Assembly (NCBI GenBank): GCA_035939315.1
Contig: DASZFZ010000050.1
Coordinates: forward strand, 3,370-67,369
Length of the DNA: 64,000 nucleotides
Source of the DNA: Solirubrobacteraceae bacterium
GTDB taxonomy: Bacteria; Actinomycetota; Thermoleophilia; Solirubrobacterales; Solirubrobacteraceae
Reading direction: 5' to 3'
Both the position numbers and the translations under genes were made by a program. The notes under the pieces were generated by a model. That model ran no database searches, was not told where the DNA came from, and saw only the letters and a program-made list of their open reading frames with translations. Of this stretch, positions 3,912-35,646 are shown piece after piece. Numbering within the stretch: position 1 is the first letter of the stretch; each line of letters opens with the position of its first letter.

Positions 3912-4313
3912 CTAGAAGTCGCTCGGCAGGATCAGGTCCGCCTCGAGCGCACGCGCGAAGAACTCGATTTCCTCGGACATGTTCGCGTGCGTCATGCGGC
4001 GCAGGTCCCCGAGCAGCGCGCTCGAGCCGCGGTCCAGCTCGTCGTCCAGGCGTTCCACGGCGGCCTGGTCGAAGACGCCTTCGCGGCGGGACTCGCACTC
4101 CGGGCAGCGCAGCACGATCCGCCAGTGCCGCGGGCCCTCCTCGGACCAGTCGAGCGGGTACACCAGCTCGCCGGAGCAGTGGAAGCAGTTGTGCAGCTGG
4201 GCCGGCGCGCAGGCGCCCTCGCTCGCCTCGCGGGCGCCGTACACGGCCCCCGTGGGGGTCGCGCCGGACTGCTGCGGGCGGCGCTTGGTGTCTTGGTTCT
4301 TCTCGGAGTCCAT
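3912..4313 (-). CDS. hypothetical zinc-ribbon protein
   Basis: 133 aa ORF with paired Cys motifs CFHC ... CPEC. Coding-like GC3. Divergent from tatC. Confidence 0.55.
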   Translation of the reverse strand: MDSEKNQDTKRRPQQSGATPTGAVYGAREASEGACAPAQLHNCFHCSGELVYPLDWSEEGPRHWRIVLRCPECESRREGVFDQAAVERLDDELDRGSSALLGDLRRMTHANMSEEIEFFARALEADLILPSDF

Positions 4314-4477: not shown

Positions 4478-5563
4478 ATGGCTACTGCGATCCGCATGGT
4501 CGGACACGAAGATCGGCTGACCCTCGTCGATCACCTGGAAGAGCTGCGCACGCGGCTGATCGTGAGCGTCGCCGTGCTGGCGGTCGCCTTCGGCATCTGC
4601 CTGTGGCAGAACCACGAGCTGCTGCACATCATGAACAAACCGCTGCAGACGGAGACAAAGCGACAGGTGGCGAACGGCGTCGGCACGGTCGGGCAGGCCA
4701 ACCTCGCCCAGCAGGGCCTCTTGAAAACCGCGCAGGACATGCAGGCGCTCGTCGGCCTGCTGGCCAAGCCCGGCAGCGGCCTCTCCAAGGGCGTGCGGGA
4801 GCAGCTGCCGCCGCTCAGCTCCGCGCTCAAGGCCGACGTGGCCAAGCTCCCGCGCAAGACCGTCGGCATCAGCCCGGTCACGACGGGCATCGCCGAGCCG
4901 TTCACGACGACGATCACGGTGACGCTCTACTTCGCGCTGATCGTCTCCCTGCCCGTGATCCTGTTCGAGCTCTACGGCTTCATCCTGCCGGCGCTCGAAC
5001 CGCACGAGCGGCGCATCGCGATGCCGCTGCTGAGCGCCGTCCCCTTCCTGTTCGCCGCTGGCGTCGCCTTCGGCTACTTCGTCGTGCTGCCCGCGGCCGT
5101 CCGCTTCTTCGCGAACTTCAACGCCAGCGACTTCAACGTGCTCGTCCAGGCCAGCCCGCTCTACAGCTTCGAGTCCACGATCCTGCTCGCGATGGGGCTC
5201 GTCTTCCAGGTGCCCGTGGTGGTGCTGGGCGCCACGCGCCTGGGCATCGTCACGCCCCGCCAGCTGCGCCGCGGGCGCCCGTTCGCGTTCGCCGCCTGCG
5301 CGGCCGTCGCCGCCTTCCTGCCCGGCGACGCGATCACGCTGCTGCTCGAGACGGTACCGCTGTATCTGCTCTACGAGATGAGTATCCTGATCGCAGCGCT
5401 CGTCGGGCGGGCCAACCGCGTTCGACCCGAGGAGGGAAGCGCAGCGACCGCAGGCCCGGGCCATCCTGGAGAGGGACCCGGGCCCCAACCACCGGAGCAC
5501 CCAGCGGACTCGACCGTGCAGGACCTGATAGACCACATCGACCCGAGGCTCTCGGGCAAGTAG
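4478..5563 (+). CDS. tatC: twin-arginine translocase subunit TatC (with extra loop and C-terminal tail)
   Basis: N-terminal LTLVDHLEELRTRLI signature and a six-TM pattern. About 100 aa longer than typical TatC: an insert after TM1 and a Pro/Gly-rich tail. Confidence 0.85.
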   Translation: MATAIRMVGHEDRLTLVDHLEELRTRLIVSVAVLAVAFGICLWQNHELLHIMNKPLQTETKRQVANGVGTVGQANLAQQGLLKTAQDMQALVGLLAKPGSGLSKGVREQLPPLSSALKADVAKLPRKTVGISPVTTGIAEPFTTTITVTLYFALIVSLPVILFELYGFILPALEPHERRIAMPLLSAVPFLFAAGVAFGYFVVLPAAVRFFANFNASDFNVLVQASPLYSFESTILLAMGLVFQVPVVVLGATRLGIVTPRQLRRGRPFAFAACAAVAAFLPGDAITLLLETVPLYLLYEMSILIAALVGRANRVRPEEGSAATAGPGHPGEGPGPQPPEHPADSTVQDLIDHIDPRLSGK

Positions 5564-5574
5564 GAGCCGAGCCG

Positions 5575-6354
5575 ATGCTGTTCGACCTCAGGGGCCGCGG
5601 GCGCCGCAGGGCCACGCGCGTGATCTACGGGGCCCTGGCCGTGCTGTTCGGCTCCGGGCTCGTGCTGTTCGGCGTCGGCGGCTTCGGCGGGACCGGCATC
5701 CTCTCGAGCCTCAGCAAAGAAGGCGGCGGGGGCGGGCCCAACTACTCCGCCCAGATCAGCAAGTACCGCAAGCTCACACAGAAGAACCCGAAGGACGCGA
5801 GCGCCTACGAAAACCTCGTCAAGAACATCCTGCACGAGGCCGCCGGCGAAGAATTCGTGTCCGCGACCACCGGCGTGGTCACGAGCAAGGGCAAGCAGCT
5901 CTACCGGGAAGCCTCGGAAGCGTGGCAGGGCTACACCGCGCTGAACCCGCCCAAGCTGAACATCGAACTCGCGCAGCTGATGGAGAACATCTACAGCGAA
6001 GCCGGCCTCAACGAACCCGCCAAGGAGGTCGAAATCCTGCAGCTGGCCGTGGCGGCCAAACCGAACAGCGCCTCGCTGACCGCGACGCTCGCGGAGTACG
6101 CCTACAAAGCGCACAACACCCGCGTCGGCGACCTCGCCTCCGAAAAGGCCGTCTCGCTGGTGGCGCCGGGCGAACGCAAGCGCCTCGAGAACGAGCTCGC
6201 CGAAGTCAAGGCCAACCCGTCCGGCGAAAAGACCTACACGACGACCACCGACGGCAAAACCTTCACGGGCAAGCTGAACAAGGAAGGCAAGATCGAAGCC
6301 CATGAAGTCCCGACGAGCTCCACGAGCAAGTCGACGACGACCAAGAAGAAATAG
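5575..6354 (+). CDS. membrane-anchored hypothetical protein, helical ectodomain, Lys/Thr-rich tail
   Basis: ATG at 5575 preceded by AGGAG (5562-5566). It is the last 259 codons of track ORF 4603..6354. N-terminus is RGRGRRRATRVIYGALAVLFGSGLVLFGVGG (Arg cluster plus TM). 17 GAA versus 6 GAG. Confidence 0.65.
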   Translation: MLFDLRGRGRRRATRVIYGALAVLFGSGLVLFGVGGFGGTGILSSLSKEGGGGGPNYSAQISKYRKLTQKNPKDASAYENLVKNILHEAAGEEFVSATTGVVTSKGKQLYREASEAWQGYTALNPPKLNIELAQLMENIYSEAGLNEPAKEVEILQLAVAAKPNSASLTATLAEYAYKAHNTRVGDLASEKAVSLVAPGERKRLENELAEVKANPSGEKTYTTTTDGKTFTGKLNKEGKIEAHEVPTSSTSKSTTTKKK

Positions 6355-7379: not shown

Positions 7380-7452
7380 GGGCCGTTAGCTCAACCGGCA
7401 GAGCAGGGGCCTCTTAAGCCCAAGGTTGCAGGTTCGATTCCTGCACGGCCCA
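7380..7452 (+). tRNA. tRNA-Lys (anticodon CTT)
   Basis: Hand-folded cloverleaf. Acceptor GGGCCGT/ACGGCCC, D arm GCTC..GAGC, anticodon loop CTCTTAA, T arm GCAGG-TTCGATT-CCTGC, discriminator A. CCA is not encoded. Confidence 0.9.
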
Positions 7453-7684
7453 CTAGCGGTTTCCACGCGGCTACGCGGCAACCGGGCGGACCCTGTCCCA
7501 CTACCGCCAGAGCGACGGCTGCCCTCCTGTGCGCTGTGAGGGCTTCCCGATATTAGAAACAGTTCCATACGTTTCTTGACATAGGGGCCCCCGAGGCCAC
7601 ACTTAAAACGCGCGACCGAGTCCGTCTCGCGCGCGTCGTGTCAAGGCGCGACGCGGTCATCTGACAACGACAAGGGGGAGCATC

Positions 7685-31942: not shown

Positions 31943-32467
31943 GTGTCGCGGGCCGACGGCGGCGAGGCGGGAGACCCGGGCCGGCTCGTGATCCGCGAGG
32001 CCGGTCCCGAGGACGTCACGTTGCTGCTCGGCCTGTTCAAAGAGCTCGCCGCCTACGAGCGGCTCGAGCACGAGCTGCGCGCGAGCGAGGCACAGCTGCG
32101 CCAGGCGCTGTTCGGCGAGCGCCCGGCCGCCGAGGCGCTGATCGCCGAGCTCGACGGCGAGGTCGCGGGCTATGCGCTGTTCTTCCCGACCTTCTCGACC
32201 TTCCTGGCGAGCCCGGGAGTGTGGCTCGAGGACCTGTTCGTGCGCCCGGCCTGCCGTCGCGCGGGCGTCGGGCGGGCGCTGCTCGCGGCGGTCGCGGCGC
32301 GCGTGCACGAGCGCGGCGGCGAACGCCTGGAGTGGGCGGCGCTCGACTGGAACGAGCTCGCGCTCGGCTTCTACCGGGGCATCGGCGCGCAGCAGATGAA
32401 CGAGTGGATCACCCACCGGCTGGTCGGGCAGTCGCTGGCGAGCCTCGCGGACGAGGCGCGGCGGTAG
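31943..32467 (+). CDS. GNAT family N-acetyltransferase
   Basis: GTG 31943, 5 nt after the pyrE stop. LEDLFVRPACRRAGVGRALLAAV acetyl-CoA motif. It is the last 174 codons of track ORF 31553..32467. Confidence 0.8.
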   Translation: MSRADGGEAGDPGRLVIREAGPEDVTLLLGLFKELAAYERLEHELRASEAQLRQALFGERPAAEALIAELDGEVAGYALFFPTFSTFLASPGVWLEDLFVRPACRRAGVGRALLAAVAARVHERGGERLEWAALDWNELALGFYRGIGAQQMNEWITHRLVGQSLASLADEARR

Positions 32468-32509
32468 CCTTCTTGGGCGGCCGCGGGCCGATCTGCCCGC
32501 CGACGCGAC

Positions 32510-32581
32510 GCCCTCGTAGTCCAACGGATAAGACGACCGCCTCCTAAGCGGTAAATCCAGGTTCGACTCCTGGCGGGGGCA
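32510..32581 (+). tRNA. tRNA-Arg (anticodon CCT)
   Basis: Hand-folded. Acceptor GCCCTCG/CGGGGGC (one G-U), anticodon arm ACCGC-CTCCTAA-GCGGT, T arm CCAGG-TTCGACT-CCTGG, discriminator A. No encoded CCA. Confidence 0.85.
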
Positions 32582-32663
32582 TGGGCAGTGCTCAGGCGCT
32601 CGCTGCAAGCGTCGCTGTGATGACGCGCTCTCGCCCGTCGGCGGAGACGAGTGCCACGGCGTA

Positions 32664-32724
32664 GCCCTCGTCGAATGCACGGGCCATCCTCCTAAGCGGT
32701 AATCCAGTTCGACTCTTGGAGCAC
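32664..32724 (+). pseudogene. degenerate copy of tRNA-Arg(CCT)
   Basis: GCCCTCGT... then CCTCCTAAGCGGTAA-TCCA-GTTCGACTCTTGG matches the genuine tRNA (CCTCCTAAGCGGTAAATCCAGGTTCGACTCCTGG). The D arm is scrambled and the acceptor 3' end is lost. Confidence 0.75.
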
Positions 32725-32750
32725 GGCGACGGCGTTAATCTGCCGTCGCC
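32725..32750 (-). terminator. stem-loop overlapping the stop codon of the nuclease gene
   Basis: GGCGACGGC-GTTAATCT-GCCGTCGCC, 9-bp stem. The TAA stop (complement of 32735-32737) is in the loop. Confidence 0.6.
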
Positions 32751-33805
32751 GTTTCCTTGGCAGCTAGGTCTGCTTGCTCATCCTGGGTCGCTTCCAGCCG
32801 CTCGGCCTCGTCCCAAAGCGAGCGACCGGTCGGCAATCTCCAGAACCAGGGGCCATGCACCCCGGTCGGCTTGAACCCCAGCTCATCGAGTAGACGCCAG
32901 ATGATCAGGCTGGGCGAGGATTCCTCGGCGTTGCGCTCCCATCGAAGCGCCTTCCGGCTGGACTTCCCGGTCCAGATTGCGCGGCCGCAAGACGGCTCCT
33001 GCTGTAGCAGTACCTCTATAGCCCTCTGCTGCTCCTCGGGAAATCTATCCGTGATCAGCGTCAGCTCTGTGCCGGGAGCCACCGCACTGTGATCGTTGAG
33101 GAGCGCTACCGTCTGGCGTTTCTTCTTTTTCGTCTCGCGCTGCTCTTCCATCTCGGCTCGGCGTCGCCGGCGCACGAGGTAGTCCTTCGCTTGGGGGGGA
33201 GGTAGCACCTGTCGAGCGTTGAGGACGGCCTGTCCTTCGCCAACGCGCCTCGCAACGATCTGGATACAGGCGATGTCCAGGCCGACTTCATTGAGCCAGA
33301 GGACGACGCTGCTCACGGAGGCGCCGAAGCTGGACGCTAGAAGACACACGCGGACCAGGCCAAGCTCGCTGTCCTCAAGCGAGGGAGCGTGCTCGATGAC
33401 CGCGCTGCGCGCAGCAGACGCATCTGTGTGCGCATAGCGCGAGTGCATCTCGATCACGTCCTCCACCGTGAGGTTCGCGCAATAGGCGGCGTACTTCAGT
33501 GCCTGCAGGTCGGTGGTATCACCGGCCTCTCCTCGCTTTAGCTCCGCAACGAGAAGATGGCCTTCCTTGTCGAGCATCAGCACGTCGAGGCGGTCTGCGA
33601 TTCGCTGCTCGCGCAGCTCCCACTGGTCGAACTCGGTCGTGATCAGCATCAAGTCTGGGCCGATCATCTCCGGATACCTCTCAACCCAGCTTTGAAGATC
33701 CTTGCGCTCCAGCAACTTCAACTCAGTGAGCGAGGACTCGCCTACCGGTTCTGCCTCCCGGCTGTGCAGATCGATCAGAAGCGCGTATTCCTCAAGGCCG
33801 GGCAT
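32735..33805 (-). CDS. PD-(D/E)xK (NucS/DUF91-like) nuclease fused to a Trp-rich C-terminal module (possibly RAMA-like DNA reader)
   Basis: RLDVLMLDKEGHLLVAELKRGEAGDTTDLQALKYAAY gives D...ExK...QxxxY. Central RRRRRAEMEEQRETKKKKR linker. The C-terminal ~110 aa hold AIWTGK..LRWERN..SPSLIIWRLL..GPWFWRLPTGRSLWDEA. Confidence 0.7.
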   Translation of the reverse strand: MPGLEEYALLIDLHSREAEPVGESSLTELKLLERKDLQSWVERYPEMIGPDLMLITTEFDQWELREQRIADRLDVLMLDKEGHLLVAELKRGEAGDTTDLQALKYAAYCANLTVEDVIEMHSRYAHTDASAARSAVIEHAPSLEDSELGLVRVCLLASSFGASVSSVVLWLNEVGLDIACIQIVARRVGEGQAVLNARQVLPPPQAKDYLVRRRRRAEMEEQRETKKKKRQTVALLNDHSAVAPGTELTLITDRFPEEQQRAIEVLLQQEPSCGRAIWTGKSSRKALRWERNAEESSPSLIIWRLLDELGFKPTGVHGPWFWRLPTGRSLWDEAERLEATQDEQADLAAKETATAD

Positions 33806-33903
33806 TGACCGTCGTAGCGTCCCACAAATCTGGACGACGTTTGCGTCTCAAACCAACTGCGCGAACAGCACGCCGTGTGCGCCATCGCGGCACGCTGGTC
33901 GAT

Positions 33904-33929
33904 ATCCAGGTTTGACTCTTGGCGGGGCA
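33904..33929 (+). repeat. fragment of tRNA-Arg 3' end (att-like direct repeat)
   Basis: ATCCAGGTTTGACTCTTGGCGGGGCA versus tRNA ATCCAGGTTCGACTCCTGGCGGGGGCA. It shares the CTCTTGG variant with the 32664-32724 copy. Confidence 0.7.
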
Positions 33930-33962
33930 CAGGAGGGGATGCCAACGGGCGCATGAACGAGG

Positions 33963-33968
33963 CATAAT
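33963..33968 (+). promoter_or_regulatory. -10 element (CATAAT) giving a probable leaderless transcript for the MNT gene
   Basis: CATAAT ends 6 nt before the A of ATG 33975, and there is no SD. The same 13-mer GCATAATGGACAC recurs upstream of ftsH (62288-62300). Confidence 0.45.
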
Positions 33969-33974
33969 GGACAC

Positions 33975-34526
33975 ATGAGCGCCCTGGGCCTGCTAGCGCG
34001 AGATGTCGGGGTCGACGAGCGAACGCTACGCCGCGCTGTGGCGGCCGGCACGCTTCGCGGGAGCCGCACTAGTCCCCGCAAGCTGGAGCTGGCTCTGAGC
34101 GAGCGCGAGTATGTCCGTCGCTCGTGGGGGCTGATCTCGATGCTGCGGGCGGGGCTTCGGACCGAACGCAATGTCCACCTTGCGGTGCTGTTCGGCTCGA
34201 CCGCGCAGGGCATCGACACACCGGAGAGCGACATCGATCTGCTCGTAGATCTGCGCGACGACACCTTGGCGCGAACCTTGGACCTGAAGGCAAAGCTAGC
34301 CGGACTGATGGGACGTCCGGTCGACCTGGTCGCGCTCGCCGATGTCGAGACGGAGCCATCGCTCCTCGCGCAGATCGTGCGCGATGGCCGAGTGCTGGTC
34401 GATCGCAACGGCGCATGGGGAGCTCTTCGCGCGCGAGAGGGTCAGCTGCGACGCCGGGGCGAGCAGGTTGACGCCCGTAGGGCCAAGAGCGCGCTGGCGG
34501 CGATCGACAGCATGCTTTCAACCTGA
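33975..34526 (+). CDS. nucleotidyltransferase (MNT-type antitoxin-like) with ~65 aa N-terminal extension
   Basis: LFGSTAQGIDTPESDIDLLVDL is the GS-x10-DxD minimal NTase motif. Followed 9 nt later by a HEPN-motif gene. Confidence 0.75.
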   Translation: MSALGLLARDVGVDERTLRRAVAAGTLRGSRTSPRKLELALSEREYVRRSWGLISMLRAGLRTERNVHLAVLFGSTAQGIDTPESDIDLLVDLRDDTLARTLDLKAKLAGLMGRPVDLVALADVETEPSLLAQIVRDGRVLVDRNGAWGALRAREGQLRRRGEQVDARRAKSALAAIDSMLST

Positions 34527-34535
34527 GGATCGGAC

Positions 34536-35069
34536 TTGTCGAGCGAGCCGCGCAAGGCGGAGCAAAAGCGCTGGCGGAGTCAGATAGTCAACCATCTCGC
34601 AGATTTCCCGCGCCAATTCGCCGCGCTTGAGCACGCGATGGCAGCGTTCGGCGGCGACTTCGATCTCCGTCAGTTCAAGCAGGCGTTCAACACGACAGAA
34701 GACATTGACGCCTACAACCGCGTGCAGTCGGTCGAGCGTGCCTTGGGCCGGGTGCAGAACTTCGTCGCGGACCTGGCCCGAGCTGGCGTCAAGCTCGCGC
34801 TGCTCCCGCCGGCGCCGGACAGGCATGCCTCGCCCGCGCACCAAGCATTCGTGTCTCTCCGTGAGGCGAGGGTGATCAGCGGACAGCTCTCCCGGCGGCT
34901 GATACGTGCGCAGGAGGCCAGGACTGCGGTAGAGCACGGCTACATCCAGGCCTCCGCAGGCCAGGTCCACCAGGCCGCTGAGCTCATCCGCGACAGCGCC
35001 CGCGATTTCATCGGGCCATACCGAAACTGGATCGAGACGTACCTCACCGAGGAGAATCGAGGCCAGTAG
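34536..35069 (+). CDS. HEPN-like protein (putative toxin partner of the MNT)
   Basis: Rx4H motif in QEARTAVEHGY near the C-terminal third. All-helical composition. Position immediately downstream of an MNT gene. Confidence 0.6.
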   Translation: MSSEPRKAEQKRWRSQIVNHLADFPRQFAALEHAMAAFGGDFDLRQFKQAFNTTEDIDAYNRVQSVERALGRVQNFVADLARAGVKLALLPPAPDRHASPAHQAFVSLREARVISGQLSRRLIRAQEARTAVEHGYIQASAGQVHQAAELIRDSARDFIGPYRNWIETYLTEENRGQ

Positions 35070-35193
35070 GGCCGACCCTCCCCCGCGCCGTGCGGACCGC
35101 TAGCGTGTCGCCAGCCACCAGCCGCCGCCCGCCAAGCGATGCCCGCGCGGCGGCCCATCAGCGGCCCATTTCTCGAACCCAGGGGGACCACGC

Positions 35194-35646
35194 ATGACCG
35201 CACCGCGCTCGACAAGCCTCGCCCTAGCCCTGGCCTGCGCGGCCCTGCTCGCGGGCTGCGGCTCCGGCGGCTCCAACACCACCGGCACGACCGGCTCCAC
35301 GGCGAGCACCCAGGGGTCGACGAGCACGGCGAGCTCCACGAGCACGTCCGCGCCGACGACGTCGAGCGCCCCCAACTCCACCACCTCGACCCAGCCCACG
35401 ACGCCCGCGCTGGGTGCCTCTGCCGCGGCTCAGTACGCCTCCGTCTGCAAGGCGATCATCAAAAGCGCCCCGTCGCTGTCGGCGACCGTGAAGGGAAAGG
35501 TGGAAGGCATCTGCGCCAAAGCCGCCAAAGGCGACGAGGCTGGCGCCCGCGCGGCCGCGAAAGAAGTGTGCGTGGAAGTCATCGACGCCTCGCCGATCCC
35601 CACGGCCGCCAAGCGGCGGGCGCTGGCGGAGTGCAAAGCGACGTGA
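35194..35646 (+). CDS. lipoprotein with Ser/Thr-rich linker
   Basis: Lipobox LLAGCGS after the signal peptide, a long S/T tract, and a Cys-containing helical C-terminus. Confidence 0.75.
   Translation: MTAPRSTSLALALACAALLAGCGSGGSNTTGTTGSTASTQGSTSTASSTSTSAPTTSSAPNSTTSTQPTTPALGASAAAQYASVCKAIIKSAPSLSATVKGKVEGICAKAAKGDEAGARAAAKEVCVEVIDASPIPTAAKRRALAECKAT

Follow-up and report, generated by a model that had tools for sequence, protein, structure and literature searches.

A decayed islet at tRNA-Arg(CCT) in a Solirubrobacteraceae bacterium, probably left by tandem accretion

How did a few small genes come to lie between fragments of a tRNA gene when no integrase is found nearby? The question is raised by an islet of about 2.5 kb (positions 32582-35085) directly downstream of the tRNA-Arg(CCT) gene in a 64,000-nucleotide stretch of a Solirubrobacteraceae genome (GenBank assembly GCA_035939315.1, contig DASZFZ010000050.1, positions 3,370 to 67,369); this whole stretch is called the window here. 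An earlier interpretation made from the letters of the DNA (the sequence-only reading) had taken the islet for the scars of serial site-specific integrations whose integrases were lost, leaving defence or addiction genes behind. That core idea has held: relatives carry exact repeats of the tRNA 3' end at the same locus, one of them has an apparently intact integrase-bearing element there, and the window contains no integrase. In our judgement the islet is, with good probability, a decayed, integrase-less product of tandem accretion at an attachment site within tRNA-Arg(CCT).

The islet differs from its surroundings in composition, as had already been noticed: its guanine and cytosine (GC) content is 0.643, against 0.751 and 0.734 in the adjoining 5 kb on its left and right, respectively, in a window of about 72% GC. 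The window sequence is matched by a 76.5-kb contig in Joint Genome Institute (JGI) metagenome 3300037491. Neither tblastn with the integrase of the lineage nor a scan for its catalytic motifs detected an integrase anywhere in the 64 kb, which argues that the islet is a decayed remnant rather than a functional element. For comparison we collected about 100 related Solirubrobacteraceae loci (given L numbers below), nearly all from metagenome-assembled genomes, in two scans: the first used the final 42 nt of the tRNA as query and covered a single genome for each species, in 8-kb tiles, and the second searched metagenome contigs with the protein of the neighbouring GNAT gene, taking loci with 10 kb of downstream sequence.

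Repeats derived from the tRNA gene

The tRNA gene at the left border of the islet is intact, ARAGORN and Rfam agreeing with the sequence-only reading on this point, and two sequences further downstream, called copies 2 and 3 here, match its 3' part (Table 1). In local alignment, copy 2 matches tRNA positions 31-64 over 32688-32719 with 31 identities, one substitution, and two 1-nt gaps, and copy 3 matches tRNA positions 46-69 over 33904-33927 with 22 of 24 nucleotides identical (0 such matches expected, from 100 shuffles). The scores of 49 and 38, respectively, lie above a null whose maximum was 24 among 2,064 other 120-nt pieces of the window (both strands) and 32 when the tRNA was shuffled 500 times and aligned to the islet, so both repeats, including the 3'-end copy claimed earlier at 33904, withstand a formal alignment. 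A pattern search allowing up to three mismatches returned the tRNA and copy 3 only, no match being expected by chance. Copy 2 has two 1-nt deletions, lacks the last ~8 nt, and was not called as a tRNA by Rfam or ARAGORN; copy 3 has two substitutions, has lost one G of a G-run, and lacks the first ~15 nt. Both are tRNA 3' ends and not attC sites. An integron is recognised by an intI integrase with attI and by cassettes that end in attC hairpins; with no integrase in the window, the islet is not one.

The sequence-only reading had further held that the two copies share variants absent from the tRNA and are therefore related. One of these stands: the T-stem change from GACTCCTGG to GACTCTTGG, a C-to-T at tRNA position 60, occurs in both copies in register and is absent from every repeat seen in relatives. 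The other, CCATC, has to be dropped as a shared derived variant because it is out of register: its distance from the following ATCCAG is 13 nt in copy 2 but 17 nt in copy 3. By a simple count, we estimate the coincidence of one C-to-T in both copies at a few per cent, and this single change weakly suggests that copies 2 and 3 share an origin, for example, in related elements carrying the same site variant. Upstream of copy 3, similarity to element arms is no higher than in shuffled sequence; a fragment at L038 5511-5534 has the left end of copy 3 and the same absent G. Loss of one G from the GGGGG run is seen at window 33921-33930, in this L038 fragment, and at L067 7057-7094, L074 4043-4082, and L079 4257-4295, and in such older repeats could be a recurrent homopolymer loss, an older allele, or an assembly error in nanopore-based genomes.

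Copy 2 had been described as a near full-length tRNA copy set off from the tRNA by an 82-nt spacer. Both parts of that description give way to another: the supposed spacer and the supposed 5' part of the tRNA are the end of a protein-coding gene. On the minus strand, 32592-32687 translates as MARAFDEGYAVALVSADGRERVITATLAASA followed by a stop codon; 29 of its 31 residues agree with those at the C-terminal end of a 79-aa L025 protein, and GCCCTCGT is the reverse complement of the D-E-G codons in that gene. Since the 5' similarity is coding sequence of what we call cassette X, copy 2 is a 3' attachment-site fragment fused to a gene remnant, and most probably it is the right-end repeat of cassette X. 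At the nucleotide level, window 32590-32683 is 84-90% identical to L025, L034, L055, L016, L042, and L036 over about 95 nt. In relatives, cassette X consists of the 79-aa minus-strand gene, whose product has no family match, and then an 85-aa gene with a weak match to DUF7718; in L025 it measures 773 bp and lies exactly between tRNA-derived repeats at 5359-5401 and 6175-6217, with its genes at 5412-5893. According to a multiple alignment, what remains of X in the window is its first ~100 nt, after which the sequence jumps to a point ~5-10 nt from the repeat core, about 670 bp of the ~0.77-kb two-gene cassette being missing. As the source of this truncation we considered a deletion through microhomology of GCC(C/T)TCGTCGA repeats, of the kind found in L034, and rejected it because it does not fit the junction. 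The two X genes may form a small toxin-antitoxin-like pair.

Table 1. Features of the islet and its borders (positions in the window)
Feature	Position	Strand	Basis or remark
tRNA-Arg(CCT), intact	32510-32581	+	ARAGORN; Rfam tRNA, 61.8 bits
Cassette X remnant, last 31 codons and stop of a small gene	32592-32687	-	Homology to relatives, translation
Copy 2, decayed attachment-site repeat	32688-32724	+	Local alignment; acceptor 3' strand lost
Inverted repeat GGCGACGGCG / TGCCGTCGCC	32725-32750	-	Spans nuclease stop codon; read from sequence
Gene for 356-aa NucS-like PD-(D/E)XK nuclease, PDC-S11 homologue	32735-33805	-	PADLOC profiles
Copy 3, decayed and shortened attachment-site repeat	33904-33930	+	Local alignment
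Promoter-like site ATGCCA-18-CATAAT	33939-33968	+	-10 box ends 6 nt before MNT start codon
MntA-like nucleotidyltransferase antitoxin, 183 aa	33975-34526	+	NCBIfam, Pfam
HepT-type HEPN RNase toxin, 177 aa	34536-35069	+	Motif, AlphaFold2/Foldseek
Start of conserved chromosomal flank	35085-35193	+	Alignment of lipoprotein upstream regions, 10 loci
Lipoprotein gene	35194-35646	+	Next to conserved flank

The tRNA-Arg(CCT) locus in related genomes

The scan with the last 42 nt of the tRNA found this 3' part, exact, in 79 stretches, which comprise about 55 full tRNAs and about 30 copies of the 3' part only. The 3'-only copies start at tRNA positions 28-33 and form exact direct repeats of 42-45 nt, so the identity segment of the attachment site in this lineage corresponds to approximately 32540-32581 of the window, from the anticodon stem to the 3' end. 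Arrays reach four copies: four repeats in L025, the tRNA with three repeats in L067, and the tRNA with two in L014, L047, and L079. The surroundings are conserved, with YkuD, pyrE, GNAT, and the tRNA on the left and genes for the lipoprotein, p227, GalT, and a redoxin on the right, and between tRNA and right flank the length of DNA ranges from 218 nt in L052, essentially an empty site, to more than 8.5 kb in L130. A 434-aa tyrosine recombinase is encoded downstream of the tRNA in L056 and L062, L046 gives a partial view of one, and a 151-aa remnant lies beside a repeat in L025. In L111 the tRNA and a 100% identical repeat enclose a 6-kb segment that encodes an integrase homologue with Phage_integrase, SAM-like, and central domains; this segment is apparently an intact element. 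The comparison of relatives that the sequence-only reading had called for thus yields an empty site, alternative cargo, and, in some genomes, a tyrosine integrase.

An arrangement preserved unchanged in distant relatives, as expected of an ancient structure, is not what we find. An all-against-all comparison of 114 open reading frames (ORFs), 111 from the segments of relatives and three from the window, gave ten small clusters only, which means that cargo is almost never shared between genomes. In relatives the cargo mixes conflict genes of toxin-antitoxin and defence types (HipA, PIN, DUF2442/DUF4160, RiboL-PSP HEPN, Fic, Schlafen/AlbA_2, NERD, SNF2 helicases with matches to ZorD/DpdE profiles, AAA_16 ATPases, and a Pycsar-cyclase-like protein) with accessory genes of an ordinary kind (transposases, MFS transporters, P450, and a sensor kinase together with an ABC transporter). 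No contig of the same species with a different islet was found, the sole other contig, L002, being identical and the relatives from the metagenome scan having GNAT identities of 80% or less. In L079, the ~35 nt before both repeats (2100-2133 and 4222-4256) are nearly identical (GTGATTRCGGGCGATWCGGC...), so that two neighbouring segments end in the same arm sequence. One locus, L050 (CAJCHW010000052.1), is titled 'Chlamydiae bacterium' and shows the YkuD-pyrE-tRNA-Arg(CCT)...GalT synteny with an identical 42-nt tRNA 3' part; it is probably mis-binned.

These data bear directly on an alternative in which tandem duplication or slippage copied the tRNA region locally, the copies decayed, and the intervening genes came in by some unrelated way, with no site-specific recombinase involved. 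In its favour, the window has no integrase, and homologues of its MNT-HEPN pair (described below) do insert elsewhere without tRNA sequences. Yet copy 2 begins at exactly the tRNA position where the repeats of relatives begin, what looked like its 5' part belongs to the coding sequence of another gene, and in L111 the tRNA and this repeat enclose a complete element with an integrase. A local duplication would also have copied the 5' half of the tRNA and the DNA upstream, neither of which is seen, and we hold this explanation to be very improbable.

Cargo and right border of the islet

The sequence-only reading described the ORFs of the islet correctly: a single minus-strand gene between copies 2 and 3 and a gene pair on the plus strand after copy 3. 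The product of the single gene matches five PADLOC profiles for PDC-S11 with E-values from 5.6e-54 to 2.2e-25 over residues 12-244 of 356; its match to NucS is weak, and Pfam gave no match to the product. Residues D74, D79, E88, and K90 are invariant among 38 homologues. Homologues with 74-78% identity are sited among CBASS, AbiE, restriction-modification, and GmrSD genes, and DNA homology to them stops at the edges of the ORF, with no conserved flanks that would define a mobile unit. A structure-based assignment led nowhere: the N-terminal part of the AlphaFold2 model is poor (mean pLDDT, the predicted local distance difference test, 67.9; below 50 in the nuclease domain; the C-terminal part at ~230-345 confident) and a Foldseek search of the PDB with the whole model gave no meaningful match.

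A 2026 preprint gives PDC-S11 the name Madara and describes it as a modification-dependent restriction nuclease in which a NucS-like PD-(D/E)XK domain is linked to an EVE-like one; it reportedly restricts T4-like phages whose cytosines are modified, an activity reported only for the protein of E. coli ECOR34 (bioRxiv 10.64898/2026.09.05.749240). The gene in the window resembles this system in being a single-gene system, in the strong profile matches of its N-terminal NucS-like domain, and in the company of defence genes that its family keeps. It differs in that the profile match ends at residue 244 of 356 and in that the C-terminal domain is not assigned to the reported EVE-like fold. By family membership, the window nuclease probably cuts modified phage DNA. 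The inverted repeat across its stop codon (Table 1) could, from its sequence, possibly form a transcript-end hairpin; a terminator scan did not list it. In L007 (7387-12250), a homologue with 78% identity lies 540 nt downstream of tRNA-Thr(CGT), with two genes for DNA methyltransferases after it; the gene family thus has a second setting beside a tRNA.

The gene pair after copy 3 encodes a minimal nucleotidyltransferase (MNT) and a HEPN protein. The 183-aa MNT scores 66.1 bits against NCBIfam MntA_antitoxin (cut-off 60), matches Pfam Polbeta and NTP_transf_2, and contains the motif GSX10DXD, as defined in PMC7641770, in the form GSTAQGIDTPESDID. The 177-aa HEPN protein, with over 450 homologues of which JGI labels many YutE/DUF86, falls below the cut-offs of the Pfam and NCBIfam HepT models. 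A sequence-profile search of the PDB found nothing for it, and its predicted structure was used instead: the AlphaFold2 model (pLDDT 90.4) has as its best Foldseek matches in the PDB the HepT structures 6m6u, 7ae8, and 5yep together with YutE 1ylm, with probability 1.00 and template-modelling (TM) scores of 0.7-0.8 on the target. The residues R129-x4-H134-x-Y136 (RTAVEHGY) are invariant in 22 HEPN homologues and correspond to the motif RX4HXY, whose tyrosine is adenylylated in the characterised MntA-HepT system (PMC7641770). From motifs and predicted fold, we assign the pair to the MntA-HepT type VII toxin-antitoxin modules. As a member of this family, HepT would act as an RNase toxin that MntA would neutralise by adenylylating the RX4HXY tyrosine, and the module would favour retention of the DNA that carries it.

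The pair is like the characterised system in gene order (MNT upstream of HEPN, with a 9-nt gap), in both motifs, and in a predicted fold that matches solved HepT. Unlike that system, it has an N-terminal MntA extension of ~55 aa, a 177-aa HepT below the Pfam and NCBIfam cut-offs, and a conserved leaderless-type promoter. The promoter-like site is the only sigma-70-like site in 32400-35300, and ACATAATGGACACATG is conserved ahead of homologous modules in the unrelated genomic contexts of L087, L088, and L089; the short spacing of the -10 box from the start codon and this conservation support a leaderless transcript of MNT, as had been proposed, with a putative promoter of leaderless type. The MntA extension (MSALGLLARDVGVDERTLRRAV..., window 33975-34140) is kept in the homologues of L025, L087, L088, and L089 and is unusual for MntA antitoxins, which are shorter than 150 aa (PMC7641770); it resembles a helix-turn-helix and may be a domain for DNA binding. 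Homologues of the window's MNT, with 41-48% identity, occur in L025, L079, L091, L093, L104, and L110; in two of these genomes, L025 and L079, repeats flank the MNT gene and its partner on either side.

To the right of the pair, the sequence conserved upstream of the lipoprotein gene starts at ~35085, about 15 nt past the HEPN stop codon. The faintly tRNA-like stretch TTCTCGAACCCAGGGGGACC was considered as a hidden attachment-site remnant between these two genes and rejected; since it is conserved before the lipoprotein gene in all relatives, it belongs to the upstream or ribosome-binding region of that gene. Eight relatives (L031, L034, L058, L061, L072, L096, L097, and L107) have a gene for a Bax1-I family membrane protein just before the lipoprotein gene, and the gene is absent from window 35070-35193. 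Amino acid identity of Bax1-I among the eight is 81-95%, whereas their lipoproteins are 37-76% identical to that of the window. That one deletion took both the Bax1-I gene and the outermost repeat is a reasonable supposition. Far from the islet, the window holds a second tRNA gene, tRNA-Lys(CTT), at 7380-7453.

Formation and significance of the islet

Under tandem accretion, a tyrosine integrase would recombine the ~42-45-bp identity segment; the segment is evident from the repeats of relatives, and that the integrase acts on it we infer from a single complete element. Each integration would rebuild the tRNA and push the former 3' end outwards as a direct repeat, so that repeated integration at the tRNA would generate an array of direct repeats. 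In the window this process would have left three segments: ~100 nt of X with copy 2, the PDC-S11/Madara-type nuclease gene with copy 3, and the MntA-HepT module abutting the conserved flank. The two small cassettes of the sequence-only reading therefore become three segments, the first cut short and the last with a repeat on its left side only, while its view of the cargo as defence or addiction genes stands. Later deletions would have removed the integrase or integrases, most of X, the outermost repeat, and probably the adjoining Bax1-I gene, and the islet would now be fixed because both repeats are too damaged to be likely substrates. Had integration been confined to the tRNA, X would be the youngest segment and the one with MNT-HEPN the oldest; integration at a distal repeat is also possible.

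Several points weigh against this account. No integration or excision event has been directly observed, and the order of events cannot be reconstructed. An alignment of 10 loci shows no repeat on the right side of the MNT-HEPN segment. The closest MNT-HEPN homologues (62-73% identity) occur in unrelated contexts, where neither a tRNA nor a fragment of one lies close by; the DNA that the window shares with such modules begins only ~30 nt ahead of the start codon and ends at the HEPN stop, which places copy 3 outside the module, and a search for conserved DNA flanks that might define a mobile unit found none beyond the promoter and the ORFs. Since these homologues are sited elsewhere without a tRNA, a tRNA-directed arrival of the module in the window is something we infer, and it may have arrived by another route. 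Lastly, an integrase or its remnant is present in only 2 of the 39 complete repeat-to-repeat intervals of relatives. The tiles of the first scan contained 28 such intervals (0.68-5.2 kb), where the L025 remnant was the sole trace of an integrase, and the metagenome views of the second scan added 11, with an integrase in L111 only. Loss of the integrase would then need to be very frequent, unless another process acts.

Such a process could be mobilisation in trans: the short repeat-bounded segments may be complete cassettes without an integrase of their own rather than debris, excised and put in at any attachment-site copy by the integrase of a co-resident element, in which case the hot spot would work as an integron-type platform or in the manner of cis-mobilizable elements. 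We regard this as unlikely, and would likewise call improbable the more specific form in which the tRNA-Arg(CCT) site serves as a platform for integrase-less units of 0.7-1.5 kb with one or two genes, tRNA-derived repeats at their ends, and conserved arm motifs, which the integrase of an occasional larger element would excise, shuffle, and insert, the window being a decayed array of them. The 37 intervals lacking an integrase are what such cassettes would produce, as are the short lengths (1.5 kb or less in 12 of the first 28), but the 8-kb tiles favour short intervals, and integrase-bearing elements rarely fit within one tile. Cassette X offers further points in favour: in the window and in L016 it directly adjoins the identity segment of the tRNA, and in L025 that of the third repeat; its order relative to MNT/HEPN differs between the window and L025; and it is 84-91% identical between genomes whose pyrE-GNAT genes are 77-82% identical. 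This higher identity could, however, result from purifying selection alone, and no repeat precedes X in four of seven genomes. Many short segments also keep arm motifs, CCTGCAAAT-like after the core and ACAAAT/ATAGAT with a small hairpin before it, but the nuclease and MNT-HEPN genes share no flanking DNA with their homologues elsewhere, and the repeats of the window itself are damaged.

Tandem accretion with decay, the explanation we favour, has precedents. Accretion of integrative and conjugative, integrative and mobilizable, and cis-mobilizable elements (ICEs, IMEs, and CIMEs) through deletion and tandem integration was modelled by Pavlovic et al. 2004, in the account given by a later review (PMC5704250). 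The islet resembles such tRNA-site accretion islands and CIMEs in having an intact tRNA at one end, segments parted by direct repeats of the tRNA 3' end, decayed integration genes, a composition unlike the flanks, and an occupancy that varies among relatives (empty in L052, apparently intact in L111, different cargo elsewhere), although its two internal repeats are decayed and its outer right border has none. It differs in the tiny size of its segments (0.1-1.3 kb, with one or two genes) and in its host, an uncultured member of the Solirubrobacteraceae; unlike in CIMEs, its repeats are damaged, which makes cis-mobilisation unlikely, and no conjugation or mobilisation genes were seen. The tycheposon islands of Prochlorococcus contain scattered remnants of degenerated elements and partial tRNAs, newcomers pushing older elements inward (bioRxiv 10.1101/2020.12.28.424599). 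The islet is similar in its decayed elements, partial tRNAs, and proposed mode of accretion, a likeness of layout for which we claim no relationship, and it differs in that its lineage is high in GC and its cargo consists of defence and toxin-antitoxin genes rather than nutrient-acquisition genes.

Every component of the islet thus belongs to a known kind, and the accepted picture of how tRNA-linked islands form is unchanged. When what remains of a coding sequence makes up part of a tRNA-like "pseudogene", the latter can be misread, and a Madara/PDC-S11-type nuclease and a leaderless MntA-HepT module are here placed in the setting of a tRNA hot spot. What is unusual belongs to the lineage rather than to the window: most of its repeat-bounded intervals, as a rule, have no integrase. 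One tRNA gene, tRNA-Arg(CCT), is a lineage-wide hot spot in a poorly studied, uncultured family of soil actinobacteria, and small defence and toxin-antitoxin modules accumulate at it between decaying attachment-site repeats. If mobilisation of cassettes in trans were true, it would amount to an integron-like exchange of defence and toxin-antitoxin genes at a tRNA gene.

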